From contig JAKPMO010000007.1 of NCBI GenBank assembly GCA_029548865.1, positions 30,264 to 94,263 on the forward strand: 64,000 nucleotides of DNA. Direction: 5' to 3'. Shown one piece after another: positions 1 to 39,573 of this stretch; position 1 is the stretch's first letter; each line of letters opens with the position of its first letter. This stretch comes from Caldisericota bacterium (GTDB lineage Bacteria; Caldisericota; Caldisericia; JAAYUI01). A model generated the notes under the pieces. That model was given only the letters and a program-made list of their open reading frames with translations, was not told the origin of the DNA and made no database searches. The position numbers and the translations under genes are program-made.

Positions 1-26
1 TGTTAATTATAAATAACGGTATTTAC

Positions 27-1871
27 ATGGCGAAAAAACATTCTTTTGCAAAATACTCTCTTTGCAATCCATGTAAATGCAAGATCGAAACATTTTGGGA
101 AAAAACCAAAAACGACACAATCAATCTTGAGGTGTGCCCCCTTGAAGAAAAACAGGCAAATTTCATTCTAAAAAATGATAATCCATCGGCAATTGTTGAG
201 TGTTCATTAAAATCCTCCTCCGATCATATCATATTGAGCGAAACAGCAGTAACGCTGAATCCTGAAAATGAAAAAACAATAATGGTCAGATATTGTGCAA
301 AAAAAGACGAACCGGACATATCCACAGAGGAAATAACAGTGACCACAAATTGTAATCAAGAAATCAAACTGGTCATCCAAACAACAAGAAAAACCGACTG
401 CAAAGAAAAATTGAAGAAAATATGGGAAACGGAGGGTTTTAATTTTTATTTGTTTGGGAGCAATCTCGTGGATATCAAATCTGACCTTAAAGCTCTAGAT
501 AAAACCATTGGGTCTGTGAACTTCAAAACTGGCAAACAAGCGTGGTCCTTGAAACTAAGCCAAATAGCCCCAGAAAACATGCCAATAGAGGATGTAATAA
601 TGCATGGAGTCAATCTGGTTCTCCGCTTGAAAGCCGAAGGCAAGGATGATTTATGGGTATCTATTGATACAAAAAATGGCAAACTCAAATGGAAAAGGAA
701 CGGCGGGGAGCCATGGGCAGAAGATGAATATCTGTCCAATGAAAATCGCGTTGTAACCTATTTCAGTCTGGATACAGGAAAAACATTGTGTTCTTCAATA
801 AAAATCCCCGATTATGCTTATATAACTCCTGTATTTATAAAGAATGACAAATACTTTTTAAAATTTGATTGCAGTGAAGACGAATTGAAAGAAACAGTTT
901 GTTACGACGCCAAGGGGAAGATTCTCTGGAAAACAAAAAGATTTTATCTCGACTATCTAGGACAAGGGAAATGCAAAAATTTATATTTAACCGATATAAA
1001 CATCAGCGATGATTTTCAAAAAGAAGAAGCGAAACAGCATAAGCTTGTAAGAATTGATCCAGCCACAGGAAAAGTTTTGTGGTCATTCGAAATTATCGGC
1101 ATACCTGAGGCAATAAGCGAAAGCGACACCATGCTGTATTTTTTTGATACATATGGTATTTATTGCCTAAACAACAAGGATGGATCGATTATCTGGCAAG
1201 AGAAATCCCATAAAATAATATTGAGTGCAGATATTCTAAATGGTTTCATAGTATACCGGAATAGCAATGGTGACGATAAAGCCGGCGGAATTGATCTTTA
1301 TGTTTTAGATCCGAAAAATGGGAAAGCTCTCTTTAAAAAAGAATTCAATTGGTACGTGAGATGGAGTACTGAAAACAATAATCTTTTTATCAATGATCTG
1401 CAATATGATGACCAAGGTCAATTCGTCGATGTGTTTTGCATTGACATGAAAAAATGGGAACTTATCTGGAAAGCAACAGGCAGAGGCGAAGCAAGAGTAA
1501 TCGGGCAGAAAACAATTTTTATAAGTGAAAACGATCTTTCATGGTTTTTTGATGGCAACCCCCTTGGCAATGCTGAACTTGAGGAATGCACATCTGGGGA
1601 AGATAGATTTGAAAATGATGTTCCAAAATGGTTTGGCAACAACATTTTTGTAAAAAATGGCAGTTACCTACAATCAATAGATGCATCAACTGGCAAAACA
1701 AAATGGAAATTGCGCAAAACAGGCTGGCCCAATATGCAAAAAATTATAGAAACAAGGAAAAGAGGGGCTTTTAACATTCTCATTGGGGAGCTCAAAACAC
1801 CATGTGTCATTGATGGAATTATCTTCAATTCTGAGGGTAAAAATCTGGTCTGTTACAAAGAGACAGATTGA
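27..1871 (+). CDS. PQQ-like beta-propeller repeat protein with a Cys-rich N-terminus. It may be 5'-partial, since the frame stays open to the window edge.
   Basis: Repeated 'D-x-x-(T/N)GK-x-x-W(K/S)' blades: DTKNGKLKWK, DPATGKVLWSF, NKDGSIIWQ, DPKNGKALF, DASTGKTKWKL. N-terminal CNPCKCK motif. There is no in-frame stop between position 1 and the ATG at 27. Confidence 0.5.
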   Translation: MAKKHSFAKYSLCNPCKCKIETFWEKTKNDTINLEVCPLEEKQANFILKNDNPSAIVECSLKSSSDHIILSETAVTLNPENEKTIMVRYCAKKDEPDISTEEITVTTNCNQEIKLVIQTTRKTDCKEKLKKIWETEGFNFYLFGSNLVDIKSDLKALDKTIGSVNFKTGKQAWSLKLSQIAPENMPIEDVIMHGVNLVLRLKAEGKDDLWVSIDTKNGKLKWKRNGGEPWAEDEYLSNENRVVTYFSLDTGKTLCSSIKIPDYAYITPVFIKNDKYFLKFDCSEDELKETVCYDAKGKILWKTKRFYLDYLGQGKCKNLYLTDINISDDFQKEEAKQHKLVRIDPATGKVLWSFEIIGIPEAISESDTMLYFFDTYGIYCLNNKDGSIIWQEKSHKIILSADILNGFIVYRNSNGDDKAGGIDLYVLDPKNGKALFKKEFNWYVRWSTENNNLFINDLQYDDQGQFVDVFCIDMKKWELIWKATGRGEARVIGQKTIFISENDLSWFFDGNPLGNAELEECTSGEDRFENDVPKWFGNNIFVKNGSYLQSIDASTGKTKWKLRKTGWPNMQKIIETRKRGAFNILIGELKTPCVIDGIIFNSEGKNLVCYKETD

Positions 1872-2008
1872 TCCACTGATTAAAAAGCTATTATTTAGCA
1901 TTAGAAGGTTTTGTTATATATGACTGTGAGGATATTTTTGATATTGCAATAGCAAGGTTTTTCTTATAATAAACATGTCTGAAAAAACTGGGAACTAGAG
2001 GAGGGACG

Positions 2009-3124
2009 ATGAGAAAAATTGTAAGTATTCTGATTGCCATTGTAATTTCAATGTTTTTTGTGCTTAATCCAATGGGTGCCGGCAAAATTGCCAGTTTGAG
2101 TGAAAAATATTTCGATACTCGCGACAGGTATTTTGATATTGTGGCATACGGATATGATGGGCCACAAAAAATCGAGTACAAGGAGCCATCACCACTTTTC
2201 AGGTATTATGAAGGAGCCATCACTTTTTTTGAATTCGAGATAAAAGATCAAGATGGGACAAATATTGTAGCCCCAAAATTCGATGAAAATGGCAACCCTA
2301 TCAAAATCAAACAAAATGATCCCAAGATTATTGAGAAAATCCTACTCTGTTTGTCTCCCATGATAAATGCAAAGATTGGCAACAATAGCAAAAACTTTAA
2401 GGAAGTGGCACTTGGGATTTACCTGGGCGACAGGGGCTGGGAATATCTTGCATATTCGCTGGATTTTCCAGAGCATCATCACTTCAACAGAGCAAGCTCC
2501 ATGAGCGATAAAATATATCCCTACGGCACTTTTTCAATCGTAGACAATGATTTCAATTTTGAGGTTTATGAGTACTACGGGGTAATGCACCAAAGAACAA
2601 GAGCTGAGGCGTTTAATCCCGATTTGTGCAACATTCATGAATATCCTGGTCTGGATGAAATGGCTGAAATATCTTATAGCAGATATGATTTTGGCCAAGG
2701 CTATCTTCAAACAGGATATGGGCCTGGCAAATATTGTCTCGCTGGGCAACAACGCGAATGGGCTGAAAACGCGTTAACATCAAGAAGGGAGATGGGCGGT
2801 GAAATCCTGATCGATATTCGCTTTCTCTCGGAAGTGCTTTTTTCTCCAATGATTTATAATGACAGCAAATCCTGCACCATAAAAAGATTGTGCCAGCTGA
2901 AAAGTTCCGAAATCGAGCTTGTTGAATTGAAATTCACTGCAGATAGAAAAAAAGTGCTGGTAAATGGTGTCGAGAAGGATTTATCAGAGGCCCCTACAAT
3001 AATAAACGATAGGCTATATGTTCCCGTTGCTGATGCATGCAAATTCCTTAAGGCCAATTGTCATATTCGTGGTACTGACGGGGCAGTCCTTATCGCCAGA
3101 TTTTTTGCCCCAATGCGTGACTGA
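2009..3124 (+). CDS. secreted protein, paralog 1 of a 4-member tandem family. The N-terminal domain is unknown. The C-terminal domain resembles a divergent copper-amine-oxidase N-terminal (stalk) domain.
   Basis: Signal peptide MRKIVSILIAIVISMFFVLNPMGAG, with AGAGGAGG 8 nt upstream. Family motifs: FFEFEI, DKIYPYG, YNFEVYEYYGVMHQRTRAEAFNPD. C-terminal 'VNGVEKDLSEAPTIINDRLYVPVADACKFLKANCH...ARFFAPM'. Confidence 0.55.
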   Translation: MRKIVSILIAIVISMFFVLNPMGAGKIASLSEKYFDTRDRYFDIVAYGYDGPQKIEYKEPSPLFRYYEGAITFFEFEIKDQDGTNIVAPKFDENGNPIKIKQNDPKIIEKILLCLSPMINAKIGNNSKNFKEVALGIYLGDRGWEYLAYSLDFPEHHHFNRASSMSDKIYPYGTFSIVDNDFNFEVYEYYGVMHQRTRAEAFNPDLCNIHEYPGLDEMAEISYSRYDFGQGYLQTGYGPGKYCLAGQQREWAENALTSRREMGGEILIDIRFLSEVLFSPMIYNDSKSCTIKRLCQLKSSEIELVELKFTADRKKVLVNGVEKDLSEAPTIINDRLYVPVADACKFLKANCHIRGTDGAVLIARFFAPMRD

Positions 3125-3232
3125 GGACCATAATGTAATACAGATAAGTGTTTCAACAAAAATTTCTTCGAACCGTTTTGCCTCTTGGTCCGTTTCTTGT
3201 ATTGGAAACCAATTGAGTCGATGGAGGGCAAA

Positions 3233-4339
3233 ATGAATGTAATTCTCAATCTAAGGAAGTTTGTTCTGGTTCTAGTTGTCTTTGCAATAATTGTCACCCC
3301 ATATTCCAGCCCCAGTTTTGGCATTCAGAAAATGATCTGGCCACAGGACCCTTTTACGATAATCGCATATGAGTATAGGTCATTTTCTGGTGGTTCATTC
3401 TGGTCTTTCAAAAAACCCACGCCAATGCTTTCGTATGAAAAAGGCAAACTCACATTTTATGAATTTGAAATTGTAGAAGACGAGACTGGGAAACACTATT
3501 CACCCGTTCTGGATGAATATGGATCACCGGTCAAGGTTGATCCGGCAGACAAGGACATTGTGAAAAAAGCTGAAAAGATAATTACCAGTAGGCGGCTTTT
3601 TGGCAAGCTTGATGGCCCACAGGGCCGGATTGCTTTGGGAATGTTCTTCCAAGAGGATGACAACTATTATAAATGGAAATACTGCATTTTTGGAAAGGAC
3701 ATCAATAGAAGTCAATATATCTCGGGAACAGACAAGATATATCCAGTCGGTTCAATAAGCTACCTTGATGGGGATTACAACTTTGAGGTGCAGGCATATC
3801 ATGGGTATGCATACCAGGTAGAACGAAGGGAAGCACTCAATCCTGAATACTATGACCGTTACGAAATTCCAGGCCTTGTGGATTTTGGTGAGGCATCATA
3901 TATAAATCGTCAAAGTGGTGCCGGATATCTCTGGCTCAGTGCAAAAGATCCAAAAGTAGTAATTAATACTGTTGAGCATTCCTACACTAATTTTGCACTT
4001 GTGTTGTCTGAAAACCAAATACCGTTCGTTGCTTTAAGCTTTCTTTCCGATGTGCTCTTTGCGCCAATGACGGGTGATGGTGAAACATATACAATCCAAA
4101 GGCTATATAATATCAAAACCACGGAGGTTGAGCTGGTAAAGCTGACATTGACCAAGGACAGTAAAAAAGCACTTATTGATGGCAAAGAGGTTGAGTTATC
4201 CGAACCTCCATTCATGACAGACACTGGGCTTTTTGTCCCACTTCTTGATGTTTGCAAGCTCCTCAAGGCCAACTGCCACTACAGAAAAACTGACTATTCG
4301 GCCATTGTCGCCAGATTTTTCGCTCCAATGAATGAATGA
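3233..4339 (+). CDS. secreted protein, paralog 2 of the tandem family
   Basis: Start refined to ATG 3233 (GGAGGG 6 nt upstream; MNVILNLRKFVLVLVVFAII signal peptide). Motifs: FYEFEI, DKIYPVGSISYLDGDYNFEVQAYHGYAYQVERREALNPE, CKLLKANCHYRKTDYSAIVARFFAPMNE. Confidence 0.55.
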   Translation: MNVILNLRKFVLVLVVFAIIVTPYSSPSFGIQKMIWPQDPFTIIAYEYRSFSGGSFWSFKKPTPMLSYEKGKLTFYEFEIVEDETGKHYSPVLDEYGSPVKVDPADKDIVKKAEKIITSRRLFGKLDGPQGRIALGMFFQEDDNYYKWKYCIFGKDINRSQYISGTDKIYPVGSISYLDGDYNFEVQAYHGYAYQVERREALNPEYYDRYEIPGLVDFGEASYINRQSGAGYLWLSAKDPKVVINTVEHSYTNFALVLSENQIPFVALSFLSDVLFAPMTGDGETYTIQRLYNIKTTEVELVKLTLTKDSKKALIDGKEVELSEPPFMTDTGLFVPLLDVCKLLKANCHYRKTDYSAIVARFFAPMNE

Positions 4340-4403
4340 CAACAAGCAGATGAAAAACAAGGAAATGAGTCTTTTTTAAATACACGAAAAGAGAGGATGA
4401 ACC

Positions 4404-5534
4404 ATGAAGAAAACAATAATATTTTTGCTTGCATCAATAATCCTGGTGTCCCCATTGGGGCATGCAAAGTCCCTGAACAAAGAGGCTGCCCCTTCGCAGT
4501 TCCCGGACTTCAAAATAGTAGTAGACAAAGACTACTCATTTGAAGATCTGGATAAAAAATATACCATAATGGAGCACACAAAAGAGGAAGGCCTGGTCTT
4601 CTACAGGTTGGAGAAAAAGCAAACTGCAAAATCATTTGCCTACTTGCCAGTTCTGGACAAAAACAACAACCCTGTCAAGCTGAGTCCAAAAGACCCTGAT
4701 TATTGTTATGAAGTTGCTAAAGCTCTCAATGTTTCAATTGCAGCAGTTCAGCTGGAGACTGAGTCTGACATACTAGCGGTATCTATTGTTTTTTACAATT
4801 ATGGTGATTATGAATTTTACACAGCATTGACACAAAGTTCATTTTCTAAACATGGTACCGGTTCATCGGGGTTTGTCAGCTTTGAAAATATGCACAAGTA
4901 CAAAATGTTGTCAAAAGGTAGCGCCTACATAATAGACACCAACCTCAACATCGAGTATCTGAGACTGGAAGACAAAGAATACAAGATAACCCATGAAACA
5001 CTCAACCCGGATCTTGAAGAGAACAACATTATCTATGCCATAGATAATGTTGTTACTCACACTTATTCCAGTTATGACAATGTAGGAGGATACATCCATC
5101 TCCAACTGGACAACCCGATATATACCATAGCTGGCAAACCCATCAAATATTACCCGCCACCCACACTTAAAGACGGTCAGTTGATGGTTGGGCTGGAAAT
5201 TGTCAATAAAATGGGTGCATTTTACGAGAGAATAAAAGATACAAATGGATACAGGATTGTCAAGGCTGATAAAGCAATCCATGGGCCAATAACGGTAACC
5301 GACATCACCATTACAATCGGTGAGAAAAAGGCCATTGTTGATGGCCAGGAGTATGAACTCAGTGCCATACCGTACTATTATACTGTAAAACCTTACAATG
5401 ATAATCCAATGATACCCCTGCGTGATTTTTGCTATCTCCTTAACAATGAGCTTCACTGGAGACCAATTGACAATTCTGCCCTTATTGATAGATTCCAACC
5501 GATAGATCCGAGGGAGCCATTGCCAAAGAAATGA
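4404..5534 (+). CDS. secreted protein, paralog 3 of the tandem family and the most divergent member
   Basis: Signal peptide MKKTIIFLLASIILVSPLGHA, with AGAGAGGATGA upstream. C-terminal 'VDGQEYELSAIPYYYTVKPYNDNPMIPLRDFCYLLNNELHW' fits the stalk-domain pattern. It lacks the ARFFAPM tail. Confidence 0.5.
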   Translation: MKKTIIFLLASIILVSPLGHAKSLNKEAAPSQFPDFKIVVDKDYSFEDLDKKYTIMEHTKEEGLVFYRLEKKQTAKSFAYLPVLDKNNNPVKLSPKDPDYCYEVAKALNVSIAAVQLETESDILAVSIVFYNYGDYEFYTALTQSSFSKHGTGSSGFVSFENMHKYKMLSKGSAYIIDTNLNIEYLRLEDKEYKITHETLNPDLEENNIIYAIDNVVTHTYSSYDNVGGYIHLQLDNPIYTIAGKPIKYYPPPTLKDGQLMVGLEIVNKMGAFYERIKDTNGYRIVKADKAIHGPITVTDITITIGEKKAIVDGQEYELSAIPYYYTVKPYNDNPMIPLRDFCYLLNNELHWRPIDNSALIDRFQPIDPREPLPKK

Positions 5535-5772
5535 TGATATAAAATCATGCTTGCCAGCTCCACCACCACAGCTGGCCTCTTCTCTGGTGACATAACTTTT
5601 TCTACTTCTGGAACTGGTAAAACTTACGATAGGTCGGATACTGGATATGCATCAATGTATCGAGATAATCTTCACTTGATAGCTTTTGATAATAACAATG
5701 ATGGTATTGTAGATTACTATGAGTGGGATCTATCAGGGCTTCAAAATTGGCCATAAATATAAGGAGGAAAAT

Positions 5773-6876
5773 ATGAAAAGTAAATATATTGTACCAATAA
5801 TTCTTGCATTCACATTACTATTTGGCAATGTAGCCAGCTACAGCAGACAAAATGATAATGAAACAATGTTTTCAACTAATGGCAGGTCATTTGAGATAGT
5901 TGCATACAAATATATGGGTGGAAATAAACCCTATGAGTATGGCAAACCGTCCCCATTGCTGGTTTGTGAAGACGGGGAGCTGACATTTTACGAATTTGAA
6001 TGCAAAGATATTGAAGGGTGCCGCCAGGTTGTCCCAAAACTGGACAAAGACGGTTATCCGATAAAAATTCAAAAAAATGATAAAGATATACTTGAGAAAT
6101 TGTTTGTTACACTAAATCCAAGAATAGTTGCCAAAATTGAAAATACAAAACTGAGAATCAATGCCATTGCCCTTGGTATATTTGTTGGAACACAATGGAA
6201 TTTCAACATATACACCAAGGATTTGGTGGAAGAATTTAAGTTAAGGATGGATGCTTCAGGTACAGATAAGATCTATCCTTATGGTTCAATATCGATAATG
6301 GATGATAATTACAATTTTGAGGTTTATGAATACTATGGTGTTATGCATCAAAGAACAAGGGTTGAGTCACTTAACCCTGATTGTTGCGAATACCTTTCTG
6401 ATTATCCTGGATTATACAAGCTAGGTGAGGCATTATATAGTACAGGTGGTTTTGGTCAAGGATACCTATGGGGTAAGGTTGATTCTAATCAGTTTAAAAT
6501 TGCCGGAAGAGATTATGAATGGATTATGCCAGCATTTGTTTGGGGTGAAGGAGGTTTGTTTGTAAATCTTTTATTCCTTACAGATGTTTTGTTTGCACCA
6601 TATACTTCTGATGGGAAGACATACACCATAAAACGATTGTTTCGTAAACAATCTCGCAATGAAACCATCCTTATCGAGCTACAACTAACAAAAAACAGCA
6701 AAAAAGCTTATCTAAATGGCCAGGAAGTGGAACTTTCGCTTGAGCCGTTTGATACGAAAGACGCTTTTTATGTTCCACTCCTGGATGTCTGCAGGCTTCT
6801 CAGGGCAAACTGCCACACCAGTAGGTATGATGGGTCAATCCTCATCGCCAGATTCTTCGCCCCAATGAACGACTAG
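5773..6876 (+). CDS. secreted protein, paralog 4 of the tandem family
   Basis: Start refined to ATG 5773 (AAGGAGGAAAAT ATG; MKSKYIVPIILAFTLLFGNVASYS). Motifs: FYEFEC, DKIYPYGSISIMDDNYNFEVYEYYGVMHQRTRVESLNPD, CRLLRANCHTSRYDGSILIARFFAPMND. Confidence 0.55.
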   Translation: MKSKYIVPIILAFTLLFGNVASYSRQNDNETMFSTNGRSFEIVAYKYMGGNKPYEYGKPSPLLVCEDGELTFYEFECKDIEGCRQVVPKLDKDGYPIKIQKNDKDILEKLFVTLNPRIVAKIENTKLRINAIALGIFVGTQWNFNIYTKDLVEEFKLRMDASGTDKIYPYGSISIMDDNYNFEVYEYYGVMHQRTRVESLNPDCCEYLSDYPGLYKLGEALYSTGGFGQGYLWGKVDSNQFKIAGRDYEWIMPAFVWGEGGLFVNLLFLTDVLFAPYTSDGKTYTIKRLFRKQSRNETILIELQLTKNSKKAYLNGQEVELSLEPFDTKDAFYVPLLDVCRLLRANCHTSRYDGSILIARFFAPMND

Positions 6877-10977: not shown

Positions 10978-11580
10978 GTGAAAAAAATTATCGTTCTGGC
11001 GTTCGTGGCCATGATGGTCTTCGGACCCGTCGTAAATGTTCTTGCAGTGGATGGTGATCCTTCTGCTGTCGATACAATACAGCTTGGTGATCCAAAGGTA
11101 TCTGAAACCGTAAATGAACCAGACTTTTTCTCATCGATTGCCAAATTCTTTGACACACTCATCCCGATGGTTCCATGGGCACTCCTTGCCTCGGTGATTT
11201 TTATTGCCATGTGGGTATATTTTGATGCGTCCAGACGCACGAATTACGGCTGGTTATGGGGCATCGCATCCCTGCTTGTCGTACCATGGCTCATTTATCT
11301 TGCCTGCAGGCCGCCTTATACCATTGAAGAAATGAAACTTATCGAGGCAGATGCAAACCTAAGAAGAATAGAAAAAGAGTATTACCAGTACGTTCTCACA
11401 AAAGAGAAATACATCTGTGGCGTTTGCGGAACACCGGTACAACCCGATTATCAGGTCTGCCCAAGCTGCTACAAGGAACTCAAGAAAGTCTGTCCATCCT
11501 GCGGTAAACTCCTTGATCCGGAATGGCATATTTGCCCCTATTGCGCTTCGAGAATAACGGACAGGCCAAAGGGAGCCTGA
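10978..11580 (+). CDS. membrane protein with C-terminal double zinc-ribbon
   Basis: GTG start preceded by GGAGG. N-terminal signal/TM MKKIIVLAFVAMMVF. Two further TM segments. C-terminus has four CxxC pairs (CGVCG...CPSCY...CPSCG...CPYC). Confidence 0.5.
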   Translation: MKKIIVLAFVAMMVFGPVVNVLAVDGDPSAVDTIQLGDPKVSETVNEPDFFSSIAKFFDTLIPMVPWALLASVIFIAMWVYFDASRRTNYGWLWGIASLLVVPWLIYLACRPPYTIEEMKLIEADANLRRIEKEYYQYVLTKEKYICGVCGTPVQPDYQVCPSCYKELKKVCPSCGKLLDPEWHICPYCASRITDRPKGA

Positions 11581-11582
11581 AA

Positions 11583-14177
11583 ATGAAAAAAAGGGCGCTT
11601 GGTCTCTTAATTGCTCTTCTTCTTGTCACCGTTGGGGCCGCCACACCAACACCGGATGCGGCCACCAAAACTGGCGTCTGGCAGTACAGGCGGACGCTCA
11701 CAGTGTACGAGAAGGGTGGTGTTTCCAGAAAATCTTACGCCATCGACCTTGCGCTTTCAAAATCGGAGCTTGCCGATACAGCCTCTGACCTAAGATTGAC
11801 CGACAACAAGGGCACTCTCCTTCCATACCAGATTGTCTCAATAGAGAATGGAAAAGTAACCGTAAGGATACCTGTAGATCTAGAGCCAAACGGTAGAAAA
11901 GCTTTTTACATCTACTACGGAAACCCGCAAGCCCAGCCACCGCAAAGGGTCTTTGTCGGCTCCGAGAACATGATAGGCAATGATTTTGTTTCACTGGCAA
12001 TAGGCGAAGTCAAAATCTGTTCCTACTCAAAAGACAACAAAATAACCGTCACTGATGTCGCTGGTAATTATATAAAAGATATTTTTGGAAGAACGATAAG
12101 CCCCGAAACCTACCCTGCTGGAGGGATACGGAGCTTCAAACCCGAAAACCCGACAGTGATCAGGATACAAAGCACTGGCCTGTGCTCTGTGGCAATGGGA
12201 AACTTCGCAAAAGAAGAAACCGATTGCACAGCATTCATCTCCGGCGAGGCTCTCGTTTTTGTGCCATCATTTTTGGCCATCACAAGCCTCAGAGACGGAA
12301 ACAACGTGTCAGTATTCAACAGGGGCGAGTTGGCAAAAAAAGCTATCCTGAACTCAAACCAAACGCTTGTCTTTGATAACCTGCCGGCAGGAATGCGCAA
12401 AATACAATCAGACTATGATTGCGCCATCCAGTATGGCACCGCAAGCTCTTACTCATTCTTCTCGGTCCCGCAAAAAGGCCTTGTTTACTCCTACCTCCCA
12501 CTTGGTCCAACCGCAATTGTTGCCCACCAGAACAACACCGAGCTGTTTGTGACATGGTCCGACCCAACAATTCCGCCGCAAAAATTCGAGCTCTCATCTG
12601 CAGGGCAGATGCAAAGGCTTGAAACAAAATCGCCTTTAATCAAAAAAAGTGAAATTTACAACGCCACAACAATAACTTCGAACAAGCCGATAACCGTTTT
12701 GGCAATGGGGACTCAGGGTGGCCATGGTGCCACTTTCCTCCCAGGTGTTGATGGCAAACTGCTTTCAAAACGCTGGAACACGGTATCCGGGCCAATTGAC
12801 CCAAAAAATCCCTCAAACAGGAATATTGCTCTTATAGCCCCCTATTCAAAAACAACACTGTCATCGCCAACTGAAAGAAGGGTTTTCCCACCACTTCCAT
12901 CGAGCCCGATGTCAACATCACTGGTGAGTGTCACAACAGAATTCTCTCCTGTATTGGCTCAAACCAACCAGTACGCTGTCATTCTGGACGCAAATCCTGA
13001 CGACACGGCTTTGCTGTATCAGGTTCCCCCAATAAAAGACAAGAGCGTCATATTCACTCTTTCGGACCCGGAAGCTGCACCGGAAGGGTCGACCTGGATG
13101 CCGGAATCGCCAGTCTCCCCAGGGGGAGAGCCGGGCAAGCAGGAACAGCCAAATGAAAATTTCTTTACCAGCCTCTGGAAAACATTGACAAATCCGACTG
13201 AAAACCCGATGCAATTCTCGCTTGTTCTTCTTTTTGCGGCACTTATTCTAATAACTATCGCAGTCCTTCTCTGGAGGAGATCAAAGCATAGCCCAGAAGA
13301 TGACGCTGATGATGAAGACGAGGAAAAAACAGAGGCAAAAGAAGATAACACCACACAACCCTTATATCAAGATGACGGTATAAGTCAGGCAAGAGTAGAT
13401 TTTGAAGCGCTTGAAGAGCTTGACAAAGAGCCCCCCGTAAAACCTGAGGAAAAGGCCGAAGAAAAAGATTTTTCAGAAAATTGGCCAAAACAAGAGGCAA
13501 CAAAGCAGACACAAGCCCAGCAAACAACCACAAAACAGCCCGGGGAAAACATGAGAACCCCAAAACTGAGGCTCCCTAATCTCTCAAAATTCCTTTCACA
13601 AGAAGCGACCAATTCTATAAATTCCAGCAACGAAACTACGGCAAAGGAAGAGCCTCCTTGCAGTCACGAGACACCTCCACCCCCAGCAGAGGAAAGGCAT
13701 GAAGAGGCACCGATGGTTATGCCATCACCAATGGTCCAAGAGACAAAAGAACCTGAAGAGCCAGAGATAGATGTCACAGAATCAGAAATAGCCCAGCCGT
13801 CAGTTATATCTGAAGCAGTAGCACAGCTCGCAGACCAGATGAACAAGATGGGTGTCGTCGCTGATCCTGGTGCAATAATGAGATTACACAAAGAAGGTCT
13901 ATTGCCACTTCTTTCAAAAATATCCATCGCCCACACTGCTTATTCATTACTTCCAGGTGAATTGTCGATAGACCCAAGATTCGAGAGAATTCCAATAATG
14001 GGGAAAGAAGCCGAGAGAGCAAACAAAATCTCATCAGAACTAGGGGTATTTGAAGAAGTCGGAAGGGCGCTTGTCGTGGCAGAAAAAACGAGATCAGAGT
14101 TCTATATAACAACCGCACGCCTCCCGGAGAGAATGGGGAAACTCAAAGTTGTACACGTAGAGAGGTTTATAGGATAA
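11583..14177 (+). CDS. large type-I membrane/surface protein with an extracellular beta-rich region, a single TM and a ~300-aa hyper-acidic, Pro-rich cytoplasmic tail
   Basis: Signal peptide MKKRALGLLIALLLVTVGAA. TM 'FSLVLLFAALILITIAVLLWRR'. Tail DDADDEDEEKTEAKED, ETPPPPAEERHEEAP. Stop overlaps the start of the downstream AMMECR1 gene (ATAATG). Confidence 0.5.
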   Translation: MKKRALGLLIALLLVTVGAATPTPDAATKTGVWQYRRTLTVYEKGGVSRKSYAIDLALSKSELADTASDLRLTDNKGTLLPYQIVSIENGKVTVRIPVDLEPNGRKAFYIYYGNPQAQPPQRVFVGSENMIGNDFVSLAIGEVKICSYSKDNKITVTDVAGNYIKDIFGRTISPETYPAGGIRSFKPENPTVIRIQSTGLCSVAMGNFAKEETDCTAFISGEALVFVPSFLAITSLRDGNNVSVFNRGELAKKAILNSNQTLVFDNLPAGMRKIQSDYDCAIQYGTASSYSFFSVPQKGLVYSYLPLGPTAIVAHQNNTELFVTWSDPTIPPQKFELSSAGQMQRLETKSPLIKKSEIYNATTITSNKPITVLAMGTQGGHGATFLPGVDGKLLSKRWNTVSGPIDPKNPSNRNIALIAPYSKTTLSSPTERRVFPPLPSSPMSTSLVSVTTEFSPVLAQTNQYAVILDANPDDTALLYQVPPIKDKSVIFTLSDPEAAPEGSTWMPESPVSPGGEPGKQEQPNENFFTSLWKTLTNPTENPMQFSLVLLFAALILITIAVLLWRRSKHSPEDDADDEDEEKTEAKEDNTTQPLYQDDGISQARVDFEALEELDKEPPVKPEEKAEEKDFSENWPKQEATKQTQAQQTTTKQPGENMRTPKLRLPNLSKFLSQEATNSINSSNETTAKEEPPCSHETPPPPAEERHEEAPMVMPSPMVQETKEPEEPEIDVTESEIAQPSVISEAVAQLADQMNKMGVVADPGAIMRLHKEGLLPLLSKISIAHTAYSLLPGELSIDPRFERIPIMGKEAERANKISSELGVFEEVGRALVVAEKTRSEFYITTARLPERMGKLKVVHVERFIG

Positions 14178-19737: not shown

Positions 19738-20895
19738 ATGGCCAAGATGACTGCCAAAACTCTAACAAGATATATTGTTGTTGCCGGTTTGATGTCTTTT
19801 GTAATCATCTTCATCATCATGCAATTTTCCACGGGCTTTGACTTCTCAAAAATGGGTGAAGCAGTCTCAAAAGCAAACTGGTGGTGGATACTCGCTGCAG
19901 CACTATGCAATGTTGCATCGTTTCTCTGCGAGGCTTTCCAGCTCTGGTTTCTCTCCAGGGCATTGGGCAAAAAACCGGGTTTCTGGCGGATGATGCAGAT
20001 ATATTTTGTAGGAAACTTCTTTTCAAATGCCACACCTTCGACATCGGGTGGTGAGCCTTTCCAGGTTTATTTCATGATGGACGACGGCTTCTCTGTGGCA
20101 GAGGGAATGGTAATGGTAGCAGTCAGGGGCCTCATATCTGTAATGGTGAGGATTCTCTATGTGCTCGTAACAGTGGCCCTGATAGCATTGGGAATTTTCA
20201 GGTTAAACCTTAGTTTCACATTTGATTTGATTTTCTACATTACTCTAGCGGCATTTGCGCTTCTTGTGGTGGCTGGATTCATAATTATCATGAACCCACA
20301 TATTTTTTCGTTTTTGGTCAAATTCTTTTCAAGGTTCCGCTGGATCCGCAAGCTGGCAAAAATACAAGATCCCAAGCAATTTATTCAAAAAGGCGAGCTT
20401 TTCCTTGGCGAAATAAGATCATCAGCAAAACTGCTCATTCAAGGGAAAAAGATATGGATGATTGGTGCGATTTTCAATTCCATCCTGACATGGGTACTCC
20501 TGAAAACCATGCCATTTTTTATCATGCTTGCCCTAAACGAGCACCCAAATATATTTGTTATTTTTGCAATAGGTGTGATCTCACAACTCGCCACCGCATG
20601 GGTGCCAACACCCGGTGCAGTCGGAGGAATAGAAACTGGAATGCTTGCGTTTGCATCAACCATGCAGACTCCTGGAAACATAGGACTGTTTGTATTTATT
20701 TATAGGCTGATGGACTACCACATGGATGTTCTTGTTGGCGCACCCATAGCTTTGAGGCTCTTGTCTAAAAAGCTCGGAAAAGATACCAGCAATGCCGATT
20801 TATCAGCACTCACCAGCCAGATAAGCCAGAAAATGGAAGAAGAAAAAGAAAAGATGGCTCAAGAAGAACTTGCCTCAGAGCACAAGGTAAATTGA
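19738..20895 (+). CDS. UPF0104 / LPG-synthase-TM (flippase-like) family membrane protein
   Basis: Polytopic. 'FFSNATPSTSGGEPFQVYF' and 'TPGAVGGIETGM' motifs typical of PF03706. Confidence 0.65.
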   Translation: MAKMTAKTLTRYIVVAGLMSFVIIFIIMQFSTGFDFSKMGEAVSKANWWWILAAALCNVASFLCEAFQLWFLSRALGKKPGFWRMMQIYFVGNFFSNATPSTSGGEPFQVYFMMDDGFSVAEGMVMVAVRGLISVMVRILYVLVTVALIALGIFRLNLSFTFDLIFYITLAAFALLVVAGFIIIMNPHIFSFLVKFFSRFRWIRKLAKIQDPKQFIQKGELFLGEIRSSAKLLIQGKKIWMIGAIFNSILTWVLLKTMPFFIMLALNEHPNIFVIFAIGVISQLATAWVPTPGAVGGIETGMLAFASTMQTPGNIGLFVFIYRLMDYHMDVLVGAPIALRLLSKKLGKDTSNADLSALTSQISQKMEEEKEKMAQEELASEHKVN

Positions 20896-20967: not shown

Positions 20968-22092
20968 ATGGTAAAAATCACAAAGGCACAAATCATTCGC
21001 TACATGCTCTATGCAGGAGCACTTTCAATCATTGCTGTTCTCTTTGTAATGCAGTTTGCAACCGGGCTTGATTTTGGATCGGCTTTAAAATCCCTTGGCA
21101 AAACAAACCTGTGGTTCATACTTGCCGCCATTGCAATTAACGTCTCTGCGTACTTTACAGAGGCCCTACAACTTTACCTGCTTGCCAAAACGCTTGGGAA
21201 AAAACCGAGCTTTTGGGGAATGATGTTGATATTTTTTATCGGCAACTTCTTTTCGAATGTCACACCTGCAACATCTGGCGGAAAACCTTTCCAGATATAC
21301 TTTTTACTCGATCAGGGTTTCTCTATTGCAGAAGGGACCGTAATGGTTATTGCCAGAGGAATAATATCTGTATCAACAAGAATATTTCTTGTCCTTGCAG
21401 TAGCTGTGGCAGTTTTATTTGGGTTTGATAGCAATCTGTCAAGTTTTATCGGGTGGACATTCGTTTTAACCCTGATAATGATGATAGCGCTGATCGCAAT
21501 GGGCATTGCCGCACTCCTCAACCCAAAGTTTTTTTCCTTCTTAATTAATATCGCCTCGCGAATTAGGCTAGTGAGAAAACTCGTCAAAGCGCCCACGGTT
21601 GATGAATGTATGGCAAAAGGCTACAGGTTCCTCGACTCGGTGAAAAATTCCTCAAAGATGATTTTCGGGGGGAACAAAGTTTATCTTACCCTGACAATTT
21701 TTACGAGCCTTGTCTCATGGTTCCTTCTGAAAACTGTTCCATATTTTGTTTTGCTTTCTTTTGGAGAGAGCATTCCGCTGATGATTGTTGTCGCAACATC
21801 AATAATATCGCAGCTGCTTACAATCTGGGTGCCAACACCAGGTGCCTCTGGCGGTGTAGAAATAGGCCTTGGAACTCTTTTCAGGGGGCTTGTTGCAAAC
21901 CCAGGAAATCTTTCACCGTTCGTGCTCGTTTACAGACTAATAGACTACCATCTAAACATGCTTGTCGGCTTGCCGATCGCCTTCTGGGCACTTGGCAAAA
22001 AAGTGAAACCAGTTATTTGTACACCTCAAAATGAGAATGAAGTCGAAACATCTGCCGGAGTTCCGGAATGTGAGGGAGGGACCCTGAAATGA
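20968..22092 (+). CDS. UPF0104 / LPG-synthase-TM family membrane protein, tandem paralog
   Basis: Colinear with the upstream paralog: 'FFSNVTPATSGGKPFQIYF', 'TPGASGGVEIGL'. Confidence 0.65.
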   Translation: MVKITKAQIIRYMLYAGALSIIAVLFVMQFATGLDFGSALKSLGKTNLWFILAAIAINVSAYFTEALQLYLLAKTLGKKPSFWGMMLIFFIGNFFSNVTPATSGGKPFQIYFLLDQGFSIAEGTVMVIARGIISVSTRIFLVLAVAVAVLFGFDSNLSSFIGWTFVLTLIMMIALIAMGIAALLNPKFFSFLINIASRIRLVRKLVKAPTVDECMAKGYRFLDSVKNSSKMIFGGNKVYLTLTIFTSLVSWFLLKTVPYFVLLSFGESIPLMIVVATSIISQLLTIWVPTPGASGGVEIGLGTLFRGLVANPGNLSPFVLVYRLIDYHLNMLVGLPIAFWALGKKVKPVICTPQNENEVETSAGVPECEGGTLK

Positions 22093-22920: not shown

Positions 22921-24570
22921 ATGAAGAAACTGACAGCTTTTTTGTTGTGTGCTCTGGTAATAATGCCGTGTTTTCAGACAGCCCTCTCTCAGGATGACAA
23001 ACTGATCGAGCTTTCTCCAAAAGAAATCAATATTGTCGCGAAGCAGGGTGAAACGGCAACAGCCACAATGGGCATCTTCAACAGGGGTTCCAGCTCCCTC
23101 CTGTTTTCGCTCTCAAAGTCCTACAGCAAGGCAAAAACACAGCCTCTGGCATCACCAGATGGAAATATGCTGGTGTATCCAAGTTTCCTGGATTTCGGCA
23201 CTGTACCCTCCAAAGGCGAGGTTTCGCAAACTGTTACATGTACAGCACCAACGGAACAATATCTCCAGGTCACGGCCTCAAGCGATGTTGAATGGATAAA
23301 ATGCCTCATACGCAATATAGACAAAACGGTTGTTTCTGTAACAGTGACCGTCAAGCTTGACGGAATGGTCACAGGACAGCTTTACAGGGGCAATGTCATT
23401 CTGGCTTCAAATGCCGGCCTTGTTCAGGTACCAGTCATTCTTCAGGTGGCGACCACAACAGTCAAGGACTGGCTTTCATACAACCCCACAAACGGCATCG
23501 TCTCTCCTGGCAACAACACTGGGATACAGATAAAAGCATCAGCAAAAGGCCTCCCGCCAGGCGACCAGTTCGCAACAATCATCGTTACATCCAATGATGA
23601 AAAACAGCCGGTCATTGAAGTTCCAGTCAAACTGACTGTAATCGCCGGTTCTCCTGCGCCATCCACGCCAGAAATATTCGTCGGCTATCCAGGAGATGGC
23701 AGGGCCCACCTTTTCTGGAAACCAATCGCATCACCAAACATTGTTGGTTACTACATATTCAGGTCAAACAACCCGGGGATTTATACGGATGTTGCAATAA
23801 CCGATTTCTATGTCACCGGCACACAATACACCGACCCAAACGTCACCAATGGCTTGATCTATTACTACATAATCAAGTCAGTCGACCAGAACGGCAACCT
23901 CTCTGATGCCTCAAACGAGATAATGGTCATGCCAAACCCGATAAAACCTGTCGTCAACCTCAAGGACGGCTTGGTCACAAGGACGCAGGTACTTGATGTT
24001 ACAGGTGTTGCCGAACCAAACTCGCAGATCATCGTAAATGGGGAACTTGCAATAATCGACCCGGATGGCAAATTCCAGGCCAAAACGGTGCTAAGGGTTG
24101 GTTCCAATACAATCACCGTCATAGTATTTGATCCGGGTGGCAACCAGACAAAATTCACATACAAGGTCAGCTTCTCCGCCTACACTACCGTGATCTTGAT
24201 GGTTGGCTCCAAAAATGCCTGGGTAAACGGTGAAGAGAAAAAGAATGCCCTGCCTCAGGCGCCAGTCATCATAAGCGGCAAGACATTCGTTCCTTTCCGC
24301 TTCCTTGGCGAAAGCCTGGGGGCAGACATCGGCTGGGACGACCAGACCAAGAAAGTCACATACACGCTTGAGGGCAAGAAAGTCGAGATGTGGATTGGCA
24401 AGACAACCGCATCCGTCGACGGAAAACCGGTTTCAGTCAACCCTCCGCCACAAGTCATTGGTGGCTCAACATTCGTCCCGACAAGGTTCATAACAGAGGC
24501 GCTTGGCGCATCCATTGAATGGAAAGCGGCAACCAAAACAGTAGTGATAACATATCCGGCAAAACCATGA
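22921..24570 (+). CDS. secreted surface protein: beta-rich region, Fn3-like module and two C-terminal copper-amine-oxidase N-terminal (stalk) domains
   Basis: Signal peptide MKKLTAFLLCALVIMPCFQTALSQ. 'GKTFVPFRFLGESLGADIGWDDQTKKVT' and 'GGSTFVPTRFITEALGASIEWKAATKTV' are canonical stalk repeats. Confidence 0.6.
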   Translation: MKKLTAFLLCALVIMPCFQTALSQDDKLIELSPKEINIVAKQGETATATMGIFNRGSSSLLFSLSKSYSKAKTQPLASPDGNMLVYPSFLDFGTVPSKGEVSQTVTCTAPTEQYLQVTASSDVEWIKCLIRNIDKTVVSVTVTVKLDGMVTGQLYRGNVILASNAGLVQVPVILQVATTTVKDWLSYNPTNGIVSPGNNTGIQIKASAKGLPPGDQFATIIVTSNDEKQPVIEVPVKLTVIAGSPAPSTPEIFVGYPGDGRAHLFWKPIASPNIVGYYIFRSNNPGIYTDVAITDFYVTGTQYTDPNVTNGLIYYYIIKSVDQNGNLSDASNEIMVMPNPIKPVVNLKDGLVTRTQVLDVTGVAEPNSQIIVNGELAIIDPDGKFQAKTVLRVGSNTITVIVFDPGGNQTKFTYKVSFSAYTTVILMVGSKNAWVNGEEKKNALPQAPVIISGKTFVPFRFLGESLGADIGWDDQTKKVTYTLEGKKVEMWIGKTTASVDGKPVSVNPPPQVIGGSTFVPTRFITEALGASIEWKAATKTVVITYPAKP

Positions 24571-27991: not shown

Positions 27992-28036
27992 CGATGTAGG
28001 AAGTGCTCAAACCAACCAAAAGGGGCAATTTGCGGA

Positions 28037-28080
28037 CTCACGGTCCAGCCATGTTTTTGTGTTGGACCGTGAGGTTTTTA
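28037..28080 (+). terminator. rho-independent terminator for the + strand pair
   Basis: CTCACGGTCCA-15 nt-TGGACCGTGAG, a perfect 11-bp stem, followed by GTTTTTA. Confidence 0.6.
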
Positions 28081-28086
28081 CAAAGA

Positions 28087-28530
28087 TCAGCCGTTTTTCT
28101 CTATGGCCTCTAGCGTCACCAAAAGACTCTCTATGAGTTCAATAATTATGGTGTACATGACAAATAGCCCATATGATAAGGCAAAAATGGTCCATGCCAT
28201 TTCCATGAAAGTATGGCATTTAATACCATGGAACAGATAGGCTAGAGTGAAATCAATTGATAATACAACAAATCCGCAAACAAGCCTTATAAACCAGCTC
28301 CTGGAATAAAAAGATGCTGGATTTTTTTCAATCTTTTTTTTGAAAGTTCGTTTGTACAAATAATAAACTGGGCGGCTGAGCAAAATGGCAAGCAGTACAA
28401 TGCAAGGAAATTCTCCCGTTCTAATATAAGCATATACGTCATCGTTGCTAATAGTAAAATAACACAATCGCAAGAATACTATTAATGCAATCAGCAATAA
28501 AATGCTTAGAAGAAGGATTTTTTTCCACAT
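28087..28530 (-). CDS. small 4-TM membrane protein, tandem paralog 1 of 3
   Basis: Shares 'YSRSWFIRLVCGFVVLSIDF' with the downstream paralogs. AT-rich. Confidence 0.5.
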   Translation of the reverse strand: MWKKILLLSILLLIALIVFLRLCYFTISNDDVYAYIRTGEFPCIVLLAILLSRPVYYLYKRTFKKKIEKNPASFYSRSWFIRLVCGFVVLSIDFTLAYLFHGIKCHTFMEMAWTIFALSYGLFVMYTIIIELIESLLVTLEAIEKNG

Positions 28531-28609
28531 GTTATTTATTATACAAAATATTCTCTTTTAAGGAATAGATATAATACCTGCAATAAAAGGAGGGGATTCA
28601 AAAAGACAT

Positions 28610-29023
28610 TTAATTATTCTTTTTCATCTCCAAATAAATCAACTCAAGAACTCCAACAAAGAAAATAAACGATCCGTATGATGCCGCAAAAGCAATCAAG
28701 GTTGTATCGATACTTGTTTGCTCAAAGCCATCAAATAACGGATAGATCTGGAACAGATCAAACGCAATGGTAATAAATCCACAAACGAGTCTAATAAACC
28801 ATCTTCTGGAATAAAGCGGCACGTGGCCTTGTTCGATTTTTACATTAAAAATTAGCCTATACAAATAGTAGATGGTAAGATACACCGTAATCAAAAGGAC
28901 GACAGAAAGGATATCCTTAAGGCTTATGTGGGATGCCGGTTTGAAGATAAAAAAATAAGCAATTACAAGTGCTAGTGTCAAAAATATCGAGAAAACATAT
29001 TGAAAGATTTTTTTCTTCCCCAT
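28610..29023 (-). CDS. small 4-TM membrane protein, tandem paralog 2 of 3
   Basis: 'EQGHVPLYSRRWFIRLVCGFITIAFDLF' is nearly identical to paralog 3. Confidence 0.5.
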   Translation of the reverse strand: MGKKKIFQYVFSIFLTLALVIAYFFIFKPASHISLKDILSVVLLITVYLTIYYLYRLIFNVKIEQGHVPLYSRRWFIRLVCGFITIAFDLFQIYPLFDGFEQTSIDTTLIAFAASYGSFIFFVGVLELIYLEMKKNN

Positions 29024-29121
29024 GTTTTTATTATATAGAATATTCTTCTTTTATAAAGTAGGTGTAAGATTCAGATTTGTAATAAAAAATAAGGGGATCA
29101 AAAATATTTTAGTTATTTTTC

Positions 29122-29532
29122 TTATTTCTCCCAATAAACCAACTCAAAAGCTCCAACATATAGAATAAACAAAATATAAATTGTGACAAAAACAATCAAA
29201 GTCCTTTCGATATACAAGTGCTTAAAACCATTAAATAGTGGATGGATAAAAAATAAATCAAACGCAATAGTAATAAACCCGCAAACGAGCTTGATAAACC
29301 ATCTTCTGGAATAAAATGGCACGTGGCCTTGTTCATCTTTTATCTTGAAAACTACTCTGTATAAACAGTAAATTGGGAAATAAATCATCATGGCAATAGT
29401 AATAAAAAAGACATTTTTTACGCAAACTTGGAGAAACATGAGGCAAAGTGCGAAAAGGAAATACCTAATAAGATAAAGTATTAATATCGAGATTACAATA
29501 AAAGCACTTATAACAAGGATTTTCTTCCACAT
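29122..29532 (-). CDS. small 4-TM membrane protein, tandem paralog 3 of 3
   Basis: Start refined to MWKKILVIS (29532), matching paralog 1's N-terminus. 'EQGHVPFYSRRWFIKLVCGFITIAFDLF'. Confidence 0.5.
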   Translation of the reverse strand: MWKKILVISAFIVISILILYLIRYFLFALCLMFLQVCVKNVFFITIAMMIYFPIYCLYRVVFKIKDEQGHVPFYSRRWFIKLVCGFITIAFDLFFIHPLFNGFKHLYIERTLIVFVTIYILFILYVGAFELVYWEK

Positions 29533-29669
29533 GTTTTTATTATAAACAAATATACATTTTTTAAAAGCGCGTATCACATCACTGATATCAATAATTCTCT
29601 TGAATTTTCATGCTGTTTACCCAAGAAATTGGTAATCTTTGATTGTATGAAATCTACAAATATTTTTTC

Positions 29670-30281
29670 CTAAGCCTTCTCCACTGGCTGTCTGATGGCA
29701 GTCCTCAGCTTCGCAGGGTCGGCCTTCCTGGGGTCACCGAGGTATATCTCGTGGTGTTTGCCGCGTGGCTTCATTCCGCCTCTGTCAATGAATTCGTGGA
29801 GCGCAGCTATTGTTGGCCCCTCGGCAGAATACGGCCCGATGTACATTATCTGGGCCGACGGCCCCTCCCTGAACGCCTCAAACCTTGCCTTCCCAAGTGA
29901 CGGGTTGGGCTTTTTCTTTTTCACCTCGGAGAGCGTTGCTTCATAATGCTCCCTTGTGATGAAATCCGGTTGCATGATCATGGCCGTCCAGAGCCAGTTT
30001 GATTTGTTCCCCTCCAGAAAGTCGTCCATGTTTTCAGCCCACCACAGGCCCTCCAGCACCATGACCGTGTAGTCCTTTTCCAGCACTTTTTTGGCCATGA
30101 ACTTGAGGGTGTAGGAGAGCGAATAGAGCACCTGCATGGCGTTCTGGTATTCCTCGGACGTGTTCGGGTCGCCCTTTCCGTCCACCATGATGAAGTTGAA
30201 TTGCGGAACTTCCACCATCACCGGCGTTTTTGGCGGGTTGTAGAGGCCCGCAAGCTGTTTTTTGAGGTCGATTTTTTCCAC
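29670..30281 (-). CDS. GyrI-like small-molecule-binding domain protein
   Basis: GTG start with GGAAGGAG upstream. 'MVEVPQFNFIMVDGKGDP...' is the typical GyrI-like beta-alpha repeat. Confidence 0.5.
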   Translation of the reverse strand: MEKIDLKKQLAGLYNPPKTPVMVEVPQFNFIMVDGKGDPNTSEEYQNAMQVLYSLSYTLKFMAKKVLEKDYTVMVLEGLWWAENMDDFLEGNKSNWLWTAMIMQPDFITREHYEATLSEVKKKKPNPSLGKARFEAFREGPSAQIMYIGPYSAEGPTIAALHEFIDRGGMKPRGKHHEIYLGDPRKADPAKLRTAIRQPVEKA

Positions 30282-38444: not shown

Positions 38445-38977
38445 TGCTCCTCCTGGGGGCTTTGGATTCGGATTTTGTTAGAGGCTGCCCTAGCTCTGCC
38501 TTGCATTTATAACAGCTTAAAAATTTTAAACCATTTCAATTGCGAGTCAACTTTCAATATTAAAACAACAAACATCGCAAAATACAGCACATTTTATTAT
38601 TGAGATTAATTTGAAATAACAGCACTGGATGTTTTACAAATCGTATGGCACAAAAAAGATCCACGAATCAACCATGTAGAACCAAAAACATGACCAATAA
38701 GTAATTTGAAATATAATTTAATCAATTTTTATAGCTATAAATTGTGTTTTACCTAATTAATATCCAATATATTATTATTTAGATACAAATATCATTTTTT
38801 GATTTAATATGAGATAATAAATCTATTAGAAATGATATAATTCTATTTTTATATTTTTAAGACTACTAATATGCATTAAATAGCCATTTTATTAATAAAT
38901 ATGCTTATTAATAACTTAATATGCTCTCTAACGCACAAATTATATCTTTATTCTAAATAATAATATATTTGATGATA

Positions 38978-39469: not shown

Positions 39470-39573
39470 AGCAACCCCTTGGACACACAAAAAATGTTTT
39501 CGTTGCAAAAATTTATTTAAAAATAATAATCATTCTTTATTATCCCCAAACAAAATCGTTGGTAACTATTTTA

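Follow-up and report, generated by a model that had tools for sequence, protein, structure and literature searches.

Tandem genes for four exported proteins with an orphan N-terminal domain and a divergent PF07833 stalk domain in a Caldisericota bacterium

Caldisericota are little studied, and the envelope of Caldisericum exile is outer-membrane-like but without BamA. In the window analysed here, the whole stretch of 64,000 nucleotides, four related open reading frames follow one another on the plus strand, and they raise the question of what kind of exported protein is encoded and what such proteins may do at the cell surface. The four genes are as follows.

2009 to 3124, plus strand: copy 1, 371 amino acids; open reading frame with GGAGG before the ATG and a signal peptide at about 2009-2083
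3233 to 4339, plus strand: copy 2, 368 amino acids; ATG 3233 with a Shine-Dalgarno site; longest open reading frame from TTG 3185
4404 to 5534, plus strand: copy 3, 376 amino acids; C-terminal PREPLPKK tail
5773 to 6876, plus strand: copy 4, 367 amino acids; ATG preceded by GGAGG; longest open reading frame from 5719

The open reading frames, their signal peptides and BLASTP comparisons all agree with the original prediction of four tandem secreted paralogs. Pairwise identity is 43% between copies 1 and 4, 44% between copies 2 and 4, 34% between copies 1 and 2, and 22-28% between copy 3 and the other three, from which it is the most distant; the E values (1e-14 to 1e-102) are well past chance. 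The sequence motifs quoted earlier as shared are present in copies 1, 2 and 4, but are degenerate in copy 3. A signal peptide is found in all four copies, and a Shine-Dalgarno site precedes each of them, as had been claimed. GGAGG upstream of ATG 3233 (copy 2) and ATG 5773 (copy 4) marks the likely starts, and the former matches public gene calls, P0005 being identical. A lysine- or arginine-rich start followed by a hydrophobic stretch occurs in all four copies and in 34 of the 36 family members, and four distant members have lipoboxes in place of the ordinary signal. Within the array, a promoter scan returned numerous A+T-rich promoter-like matches, terminator-like matches were no more frequent than expected by chance, and an Rfam search gave no match.

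Each protein is composed of an N-terminal head domain and a C-terminal stalk domain, with the following limits in the first and last copies.

2084 to 2722, plus strand: orphan N-domain of copy 1
2723 to 3121, plus strand: stalk domain of copy 1, with the PF07833 match at residues 264-350
5842 to 6483, plus strand: N-domain of copy 4, the copy modelled with AlphaFold2
6484 to 6873, plus strand: stalk domain of copy 4

At the C-terminus, two homologous half-repeats make up a single PF07833 stalk domain, which is complete but divergent. Pfam scores for PF07833 are 27.0, 24.0, 34.7 and 26.1 bits in copies 1 to 4 (E 1.8e-8 to 3.8e-5); relative to the gathering score of 24.2 bits, copies 1, 3 and 4 lie above and copy 2 lies 0.2 below. 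PF07833 is matched by 31 of the 36 family members (E <= 0.1; best 3.2e-14). All four C-termini align over the entire canonical stalk domain of another open reading frame in the window (22921-24570), both halves included, and hhalign matched the first half of the C-domain with the second at 97.4% (E 1.2e-11, 56 columns). Conservation along the protein peaks in this second half. By Pfam, by alignment with the canonical domain and by hhalign, the stalk-like region spans about 125 residues, not the roughly 55 first proposed. An AlphaFold2 model of copy 4 based on seven sequences had a poor head (pLDDT 55), which was remedied with an alignment of 36 sequences (pLDDT 89, pTM 0.82; about 80-98 for residues 240-350). 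In Foldseek, the C-domain model matched 1OAC, 6GRR and others with a probability of 1.0 over 84 residues (rmsd 1.6-2.0 Å). Domain D1 of E. coli copper amine oxidase (TynA, 1OAC) thus has the same fold, with a helix packed against an antiparallel sheet, at a sequence identity of 12%, and the assignment to a divergent PF07833 domain is upheld by both profile and structure. Array proteins as amine oxidases were considered and rejected: with about 370 residues and PF07833 as the only Pfam match, they have no counterpart of TynA D2, D3 or the catalytic domain with its topaquinone core.

The original prediction also described a conserved pair of cysteines in the stalk domain, in the motif CK-LKANCH.

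6790 to 6813, plus strand: cysteine pair of copy 4, C340 (6790-6792) and C347 (6811-6813)

Only the first of these is widespread, in 30 of 36 members; the second is found in three of the four copies and 7 of 36 members, the position being Y, L, V or I in most of the family. Copy 3 has the first cysteine only and reads NELH where the others read ANCH. In the model of copy 4, C340 lies in helix 336-342 and C347 is the first residue of strand 347-349, so that closeness of the two is plausible. In the alignment with the canonical stalk domain of 22921-24570, they stand opposite T and I of ITEALGASIEW. Since some members (P0009 and P0036) have a single cysteine in the mature protein, a disulfide cannot be family-defining. 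The first cysteine is a hallmark of the family and the pair is specific to a subgroup. On a less likely reading, the lone conserved cysteine of the stalk helix might have a chemical role, e.g. in a covalent or metal link.

The head is an orphan domain. It is beta-rich and comprises about 200 residues rather than the 250 first estimated, and the earlier statement that it resembles nothing known was borne out: no match was found in Pfam, NCBIfam, PHROGs, PADLOC or PDB sequence profiles, nor by Foldseek against PDB and BFVD. Profile and structure searches showed no resemblance to a lectin, a hydrolase or another characterised domain, and no well-characterised enzyme family turned up. A degenerate stalk repeat or an internal duplication was ruled out as its origin (hhalign probability <= 1%). 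The most conserved stretches, in copy 4 numbering, are residues 171-183, 201-203 and 331-360, the first two of which hold the following polar positions of the head.

6301 to 6381, plus strand: conserved polar block in the N-domain of copy 4, with D177 (6301-6303), N181, E183 and N201-P202-D203 (6373-6381)

N201 is found in 36 of 36 members, D177 and P202 in 35, G230 in 34 and D203 in 33. Directly before this block, residues 141-170 form the most indel-rich segment. From the hairpin topology of the model, the polar residues would cluster in space, and we infer that D177, N181, E183, N201-P-D203 and G230 form a putative metal-binding, ligand-binding or catalytic site. The high pTM suggests that the head and the stalk domain pack together, in which case the role of the stalk domain may be that of an integral part of the structure and not of an anchor.

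An exhaustive HMMER search of 1.84 billion proteins with the N-domain profile yielded only 35 representatives; this was the informative search, word-indexed protein searches with profiles (9 and 4 matches) being swamped or insensitive. The representatives have the two-domain architecture in common and are 320-441 residues long, except for P0027, a fragment of 152 residues. Every labelled member belongs to Caldisericia or Caldisericales, and searches of viral contigs, plasmids and phage genomes gave no relatives. The unrelated loci L007 and L008, whose neighbouring genes are not conserved, also carry sister paralogs in tandem pairs. Copy 3 falls in a separate deep branch with relatives of its own, P0012 among them. 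It is 89% identical to its ortholog in the sister metagenome-assembled genome (MAG) L001, with a dS of 0.33 and a dN/dS of 0.16, and the background dS of valS is 0.30. Copy 3 is therefore a member of an old, separate subfamily evolving at about the background rate, and its divergence is not the sign of ongoing diversification for which it had been taken.

Purifying selection acts on each of the four copies. In the comparison of the window with L001, gene-wide dN/dS is 0.16-0.20 across them and 0.12-0.24 per domain, as compared with 0.04 for valS. Copy 1 is 98% identical to its ortholog (dN/dS 0.19, dS 0.05), copy 2 has a dN/dS of 0.20, and copy 4 is only 77% identical, with a dS of 1.34 and a dN/dS of 0.15 in the N-domain. 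Copy number in relatives, which the original prediction had proposed to check, varies: the window, L001, L009 and L010 have four each, and L002 has two. The change can be traced to the conserved 3' ends of two genes.

4289 to 4339, plus strand: conserved 3' end of copy 2, coding for ...VARFFAPMNE; direct-repeat families D2 and D3
6826 to 6876, plus strand: conserved 3' end of copy 4, coding for ...IARFFAPMND; direct-repeat families D2 and D3
5547 to 5756, plus strand: open reading frame of 69 amino acids inside the cassette formed by copies 3 and 4, with an EF-hand-type loop (DNNNDGIVDYYE)

In L002, the sequence switches from copy 2-like to copy 4-like some 25-30 nt upstream of the stop codon, in the 3' end that codes for ARFFAPM, and copy 3, the small open reading frame and copy 4 are missing. 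The 3' ends of copies 2 and 4 are thus the recombination arms, and copy number changes by recombination at these ends, with the L002 junction mapped. Recent gene conversion behind the conserved 3' ends was ruled out, nucleotide identity there being only 65-80%. The 69-residue open reading frame is probably a real small gene: it is intact in L001 (66 of 69 residues the same, six synonymous changes) and gene-called in L009-L011. Its match to Pfam EF-hand_6 has an E value of only 0.087. One assembly carries a nonsense allele of copy 1, and the flanking genes are also mosaic in identity between relatives.

The literature describes PF07833 as a module that is putatively associated with the cell wall and occurs in wall hydrolases and surface proteins (PMC4137172; bioRxiv 10.64898/2026.09.23.753664). 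The most likely reading, to which we give about an even chance, is that the array encodes exported, envelope-associated proteins in which a putative conserved anchor is joined to a variable head with a putative ligand-binding or catalytic function. The Sec pathway would export the proteins by way of their signal peptides, and some of the distant relatives are lipoproteins. The stalk domain may then hold the protein at the cell surface, bound to a partner or to a polymer of the wall, or it may support the head; the polar cluster of the head would bind a metal or ligand or catalyse a reaction, and the paralogs may differ in specificity. The array grows by tandem duplication, and it grows or shrinks where homologous recombination at the conserved 3' ends is unequal. 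A more specific possibility, which we consider rather unlikely, is that the head is a new enzyme modifying wall or exopolysaccharide, e.g. a hydrolase or lyase, with catalytic acidic and amide residues and a stalk that targets the wall. Fusions of PF07833 with peptidoglycan hydrolase domains are frequent, as in Firmicutes (PMC4137172; bioRxiv 10.64898/2026.09.23.753664), variable loops adjoin the invariant D, N, E and NPD positions, and array-type proteins work without conserved neighbour genes. However, similarity to a catalytic family was absent from Pfam, NCBIfam, PDB sequences and Foldseek against PDB, and the conserved residues are just as compatible with a site for a metal or ligand.

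Diversification of the adhesin or phage-receptor type had also been proposed, and the polymorphism that it implies does exist. If the proteins were variable surface antigens or phage receptors under frequency-dependent selection, with paralogs and alleles swapped in response to phages or competitors, one would point to the four versus two copies in close relatives, the nonsense allele of copy 1, the indel-rich loop, and the head of copy 4, whose dS, compared with the background and with copy 1, indicates allele replacement or recombination. The low gene-wide dN/dS of every copy, low also in both domains, the background rate of copy 3 and the lack of viral, phage or plasmid relatives argue against this part of the proposal; moreover, the mosaic identity extends to flanking genes, and MAG consensus sequences limit what can be read from it. 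Overall, this explanation appears unlikely. Still less probable is that the proteins are building blocks of an unusual outer-membrane-like envelope or sheath, assembled through the stalk domain without BamA. C. exile has an outer envelope with neither BamA nor predicted outer-membrane proteins (PMC4104836), the density of stalk-domain proteins in these genomes is high (five in the 64-kb window, four within 17 kb at L005), the two-domain model is compact, and the family is phylum-restricted among its labelled members. Some members are lipoproteins, however, L002 dispenses with two copies and another genome tolerates a nonsense allele, and a binding or active site would more typically show such near-invariant polar residues. 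It also seems improbable that the head is a new fold defining a Caldisericota-specific envelope class, whether a wall-acting enzyme or lectin type or a component of a BamA-less outer envelope.

The reading as envelope-associated proteins with a putative anchor can be set beside known systems. PF07833 proteins of Firmicutes and Caldisericia, such as that encoded at 22921-24570, likewise have a signal peptide and a C-terminal stalk of two half-repeats, and the NCBI label of the ortholog P0003 is stalk domain-containing protein. The array differs in its weaker match (24-35 bits versus 119.9 for the canonical domain of 22921-24570), in a stalk signature of its own (VPLxDxC...WRxxDxSxLIxRF), and in an orphan head in place of Ig-like, BACON and Glucodextranase-B domains. 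Wall hydrolases and surface proteins with PF07833 in Desulfotomaculum and Paenibacillus are likewise exported, with a head and a stalk module proposed to be wall-associated; unlike the PF07833-bearing hydrolases, the array proteins have no recognisable amidase, M23, GH18 or other catalytic domain. Among SLH or CWB2 proteins, such as the Cwp family of Clostridioides difficile, paralogous surface proteins share an anchoring module. As in these families, a conserved anchor-like module is combined with a more variable head, and a genome has several paralogs, some of them in tandem. The anchor is of another type, however, the head consists of one orphan domain and anchoring is putative; the comparison is one of mechanism, not of membership.

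The PF07833 stalk domain was already known, and the new element is its divergent form in combination with an orphan head. The significance is modest since genomes derived from metagenomes commonly contain secreted domain families without annotation, and the function of the array is putative only. Nevertheless, the array is a clean example of gene-family turnover, with tandem duplication, a mapped unequal-crossover deletion and purifying selection throughout. This is a small exported family in which every labelled member comes from Caldisericia and the confidently modelled head has no library match; the head domain is therefore a candidate new Pfam family, and a candidate for structural and envelope-biology work in Caldisericota.

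The ORF scan of the window places four paralogous genes in tandem behind a beta-propeller gene.

Reading frames of the array and of the upstream gene
1-1871, forward strand: PQQ_2-like beta-propeller gene (2658-5639 in L009, a further related locus)
2009-3124, forward strand: copy 1
3185/3233-4339, same strand as copy 1: copy 2
4404-5534, same strand as copy 1: copy 3
5719/5773-6876, same strand as copy 1: copy 4

The ATGs at 3233 and 5773 are the likely starts of copies 2 and 4, since GGAGG precedes each and public gene calls use 3233. By pairwise BLAST, amino-acid identity is 43% between copies 1 and 4, 44% between copies 2 and 4, 34% between copies 1 and 2, and 22-28% between copy 3 and the others, with paralog E-values of 1e-14 to 1e-102. 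All four begin with a basic residue pair and a hydrophobic stretch, which reads as a typical Sec signal peptide; 34 of the 36 family members start in this way, and lipoboxes occur in four distant ones. The original prediction of four paralogs with signal peptides is borne out, and its shared motifs are present but degenerate in copy 3. No fifth copy was found in the 64 kb window by tblastn, which returned only the canonical stalk domain in ORF 22921-24570. A Caldisericia MAG contig of GCA_017992475.1 is 99.8% identical to the window, and the related MAGs, judging by their sample names, appear to come from anaerobic digesters. The G+C content is 36-41% over the array and upstream gene (1-6000) and 45-49% in the housekeeping neighbours; two further low-G+C patches lie at 28001-30000 and 38001-40000.

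The C-termini had been read as a divergent stalk domain of ~55 residues. The assignment to PF07833 (Cu_amine_oxidN1) holds in profile search, with Pfam scores of 27.0, 24.0, 34.7 and 26.1 bits for copies 1-4 (gathering score, 24.2 bits) and matches in 31 of 36 members. In addition, the AlphaFold2 model of copy 4, built from the 36-sequence alignment (pLDDT 89, pTM 0.82), places the C-domain on E. coli amine oxidase domain D1 (Foldseek probability 1.0, 84 residues, rmsd 1.6-2.0 Å). The extent has to be revised: aligned to the window's canonical stalk domain (119.9 bits for PF07833), each of the four C-termini forms one complete domain of ~125 residues, the halves of which are mutually homologous (hhalign 97.4%, E 1e-11). 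Conservation over the whole protein peaks in the final 30 residues of this domain (VPLxDxC...WRxxDxSxLIxRF). The sole confident BFVD matches by Foldseek are phage proteins annotated 'Copper amine oxidase', and these are attributed to the stalk domains of those proteins. The canonical domain belongs to a 549-aa secreted protein (22921-24570, forward strand), where it follows Ig-like (HYDIN/VesB), BACON-like and Glucodextranase-B domains; in this organism, surface proteins seem commonly to end in a stalk domain.

The cysteine pair proposed as conserved in this domain is not a family trait. Of the 36 members, 30 have the first (C340 in copy 4, in a helix); at the second position (C347, which opens the next strand) 7 have Cys and the others Y, L, V or I. 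The second Cys is missing from copy 3, and two members have one Cys in the entire mature protein; therefore, a disulfide would be at most a feature of the subgroup of copies 1, 2 and 4. In the canonical domain the pair corresponds to T and I of ITEALGASIEW.

In the copy 4 model the N-terminal head domain (residues ~36-237) is beta-rich, with ~13 strands and one or two helices, and its pLDDT is mostly >90. As had been anticipated, it resembles no recognised family: relatives were absent from Pfam, NCBIfam, PHROGs and PADLOC, from PDB sequences (28-sequence profile, E <= 10), and from phage genomes, plasmids and viral contigs, and Foldseek against PDB and BFVD gave non-stalk probabilities of <= 0.14. 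N201 is invariant (36/36), D177 and P202 occur in 35 members, G230 in 34 and D203 in 33, and N181, E183, D91 and D103 are common. Within the head, conservation is best in block 171-183 and the NPD motif, which are directly preceded by the most indel-rich segment (141-170) and followed by a second variable stretch. From the predicted hairpin topology we infer that the conserved polar residues may cluster in one site between variable loops.

The sister MAG locus L001 carries counterparts of all four genes in unchanged order, with amino-acid identities of 98, 95, 89 and 77% (copies 1-4). The dN/dS values are 0.19, 0.20, 0.16 and 0.18, and that of the adjacent valS is 0.04 (dS 0.30); therefore, all four are under purifying selection, which is more relaxed than that on the housekeeping gene. 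The dS values are uneven (0.05 in copy 1, 0.33 in copy 3, 1.34 in the copy 4 head), and nucleotide identity correspondingly ranges between 66% and 100% along the array, a pattern indicative of recombination or the replacement of alleles and not of rapid change in the proteins. Copy 1, together with copy 2 in its 5' half (2058-3557), is 99.7-100% identical to L001 at nucleotide level, and the copy 4 head (5958-6557) is 66-74% identical, compared with about 85-95% in the surrounding genome; this mosaic is suggestive of recent recombination. In a rough neighbour-joining tree copies 1, 2 and 4 form one clade, and copy 3 lies on a separate deep branch with the family member P0012. Copy 3 is therefore an old subfamily member and not, as had been supposed, a duplicate in ongoing diversification, and its dN/dS of 0.16 speaks against the same claim.

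The related locus L002 retains copies 1 and 2 only, with valS directly after. Its second gene resembles copy 2 up to about 25-30 nt from the stop codon and copy 4 beyond, which locates an unequal crossover within the conserved 3' ends that encode ARFFAPM. Tandem pairs of sister paralogs occur at the unrelated loci L007 and L008 of other genomes, and the same contigs bear further family copies at other positions. No conserved neighbour genes were found around family loci in other genomes. The copy 1 ortholog at L010 (5777-6892; Logan assembly of SRR31440787) has a premature stop (Gln81, CAA to TAA); either this allele is a pseudogene or the assembly is in error.

Several neighbours were also recorded. 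ORF 27-1871 (forward strand) is the 3' part of the 993-aa beta-propeller gene, which extends beyond the left edge of the window; homology to L001 ends at 1758, so close relatives have different genes upstream of the array. Family members at L005 and L008 also have PQQ_2 and stalk-domain proteins nearby. Between copies 3 and 4, a 69-aa ORF without signal peptide (5547-5756, forward strand, in copy 3's frame) contains a textbook EF-hand-type loop, DNNNDGIVDYYE; its match to the Pfam EF-hand is weak (E 0.087). The ORF is intact in L001 (66/69 aa, six synonymous changes), gene calls include it in L009-L011, and it is gone from L002 along with copies 3 and 4. The 884-aa product of 11523-14177 (forward strand) combines a DUF2341 domain with a transmembrane segment and a long, acidic tail of low complexity; the 3' part of its gene (13158-13757) is only ~73% identical to L001. 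Adjacent paralogs at 19738-20895 and 20968-22092 (forward strand) each carry an LPG_synthase_TM domain (E 2.5e-38 and 2.4e-34).

In published work PF07833 is regarded as a putative wall-associated module of surface proteins and wall hydrolases (PMC4137172; bioRxiv 10.64898/2026.09.23.753664; architectures in PMC3901451), and Caldisericum exile has an outer envelope and no BamA (PMC4104836). With hydrolases among the carriers of this module and near-invariant polar residues in a head that has no characterised relative, a new wall-modifying enzyme is conceivable but unlikely. A variable surface antigen or phage receptor, to be considered in the light of the variable head segments on one side and purifying selection on the other, is somewhat less probable still. 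A structural envelope component, which has the nearly invariant polar residues of the head against it, seems the most doubtful of the three.

The best-supported reading is an exported envelope protein with an anchoring or supporting stalk and a head of varying specificity. The array products would be exported and envelope-associated, the conserved stalk-type domain may anchor or support the protein, and the head, judging from residue conservation, may bear a binding or catalytic site with specificity differing between paralogs. Within the established class of secreted stalk-domain proteins, the family stands as a new variant associated with Caldisericia.
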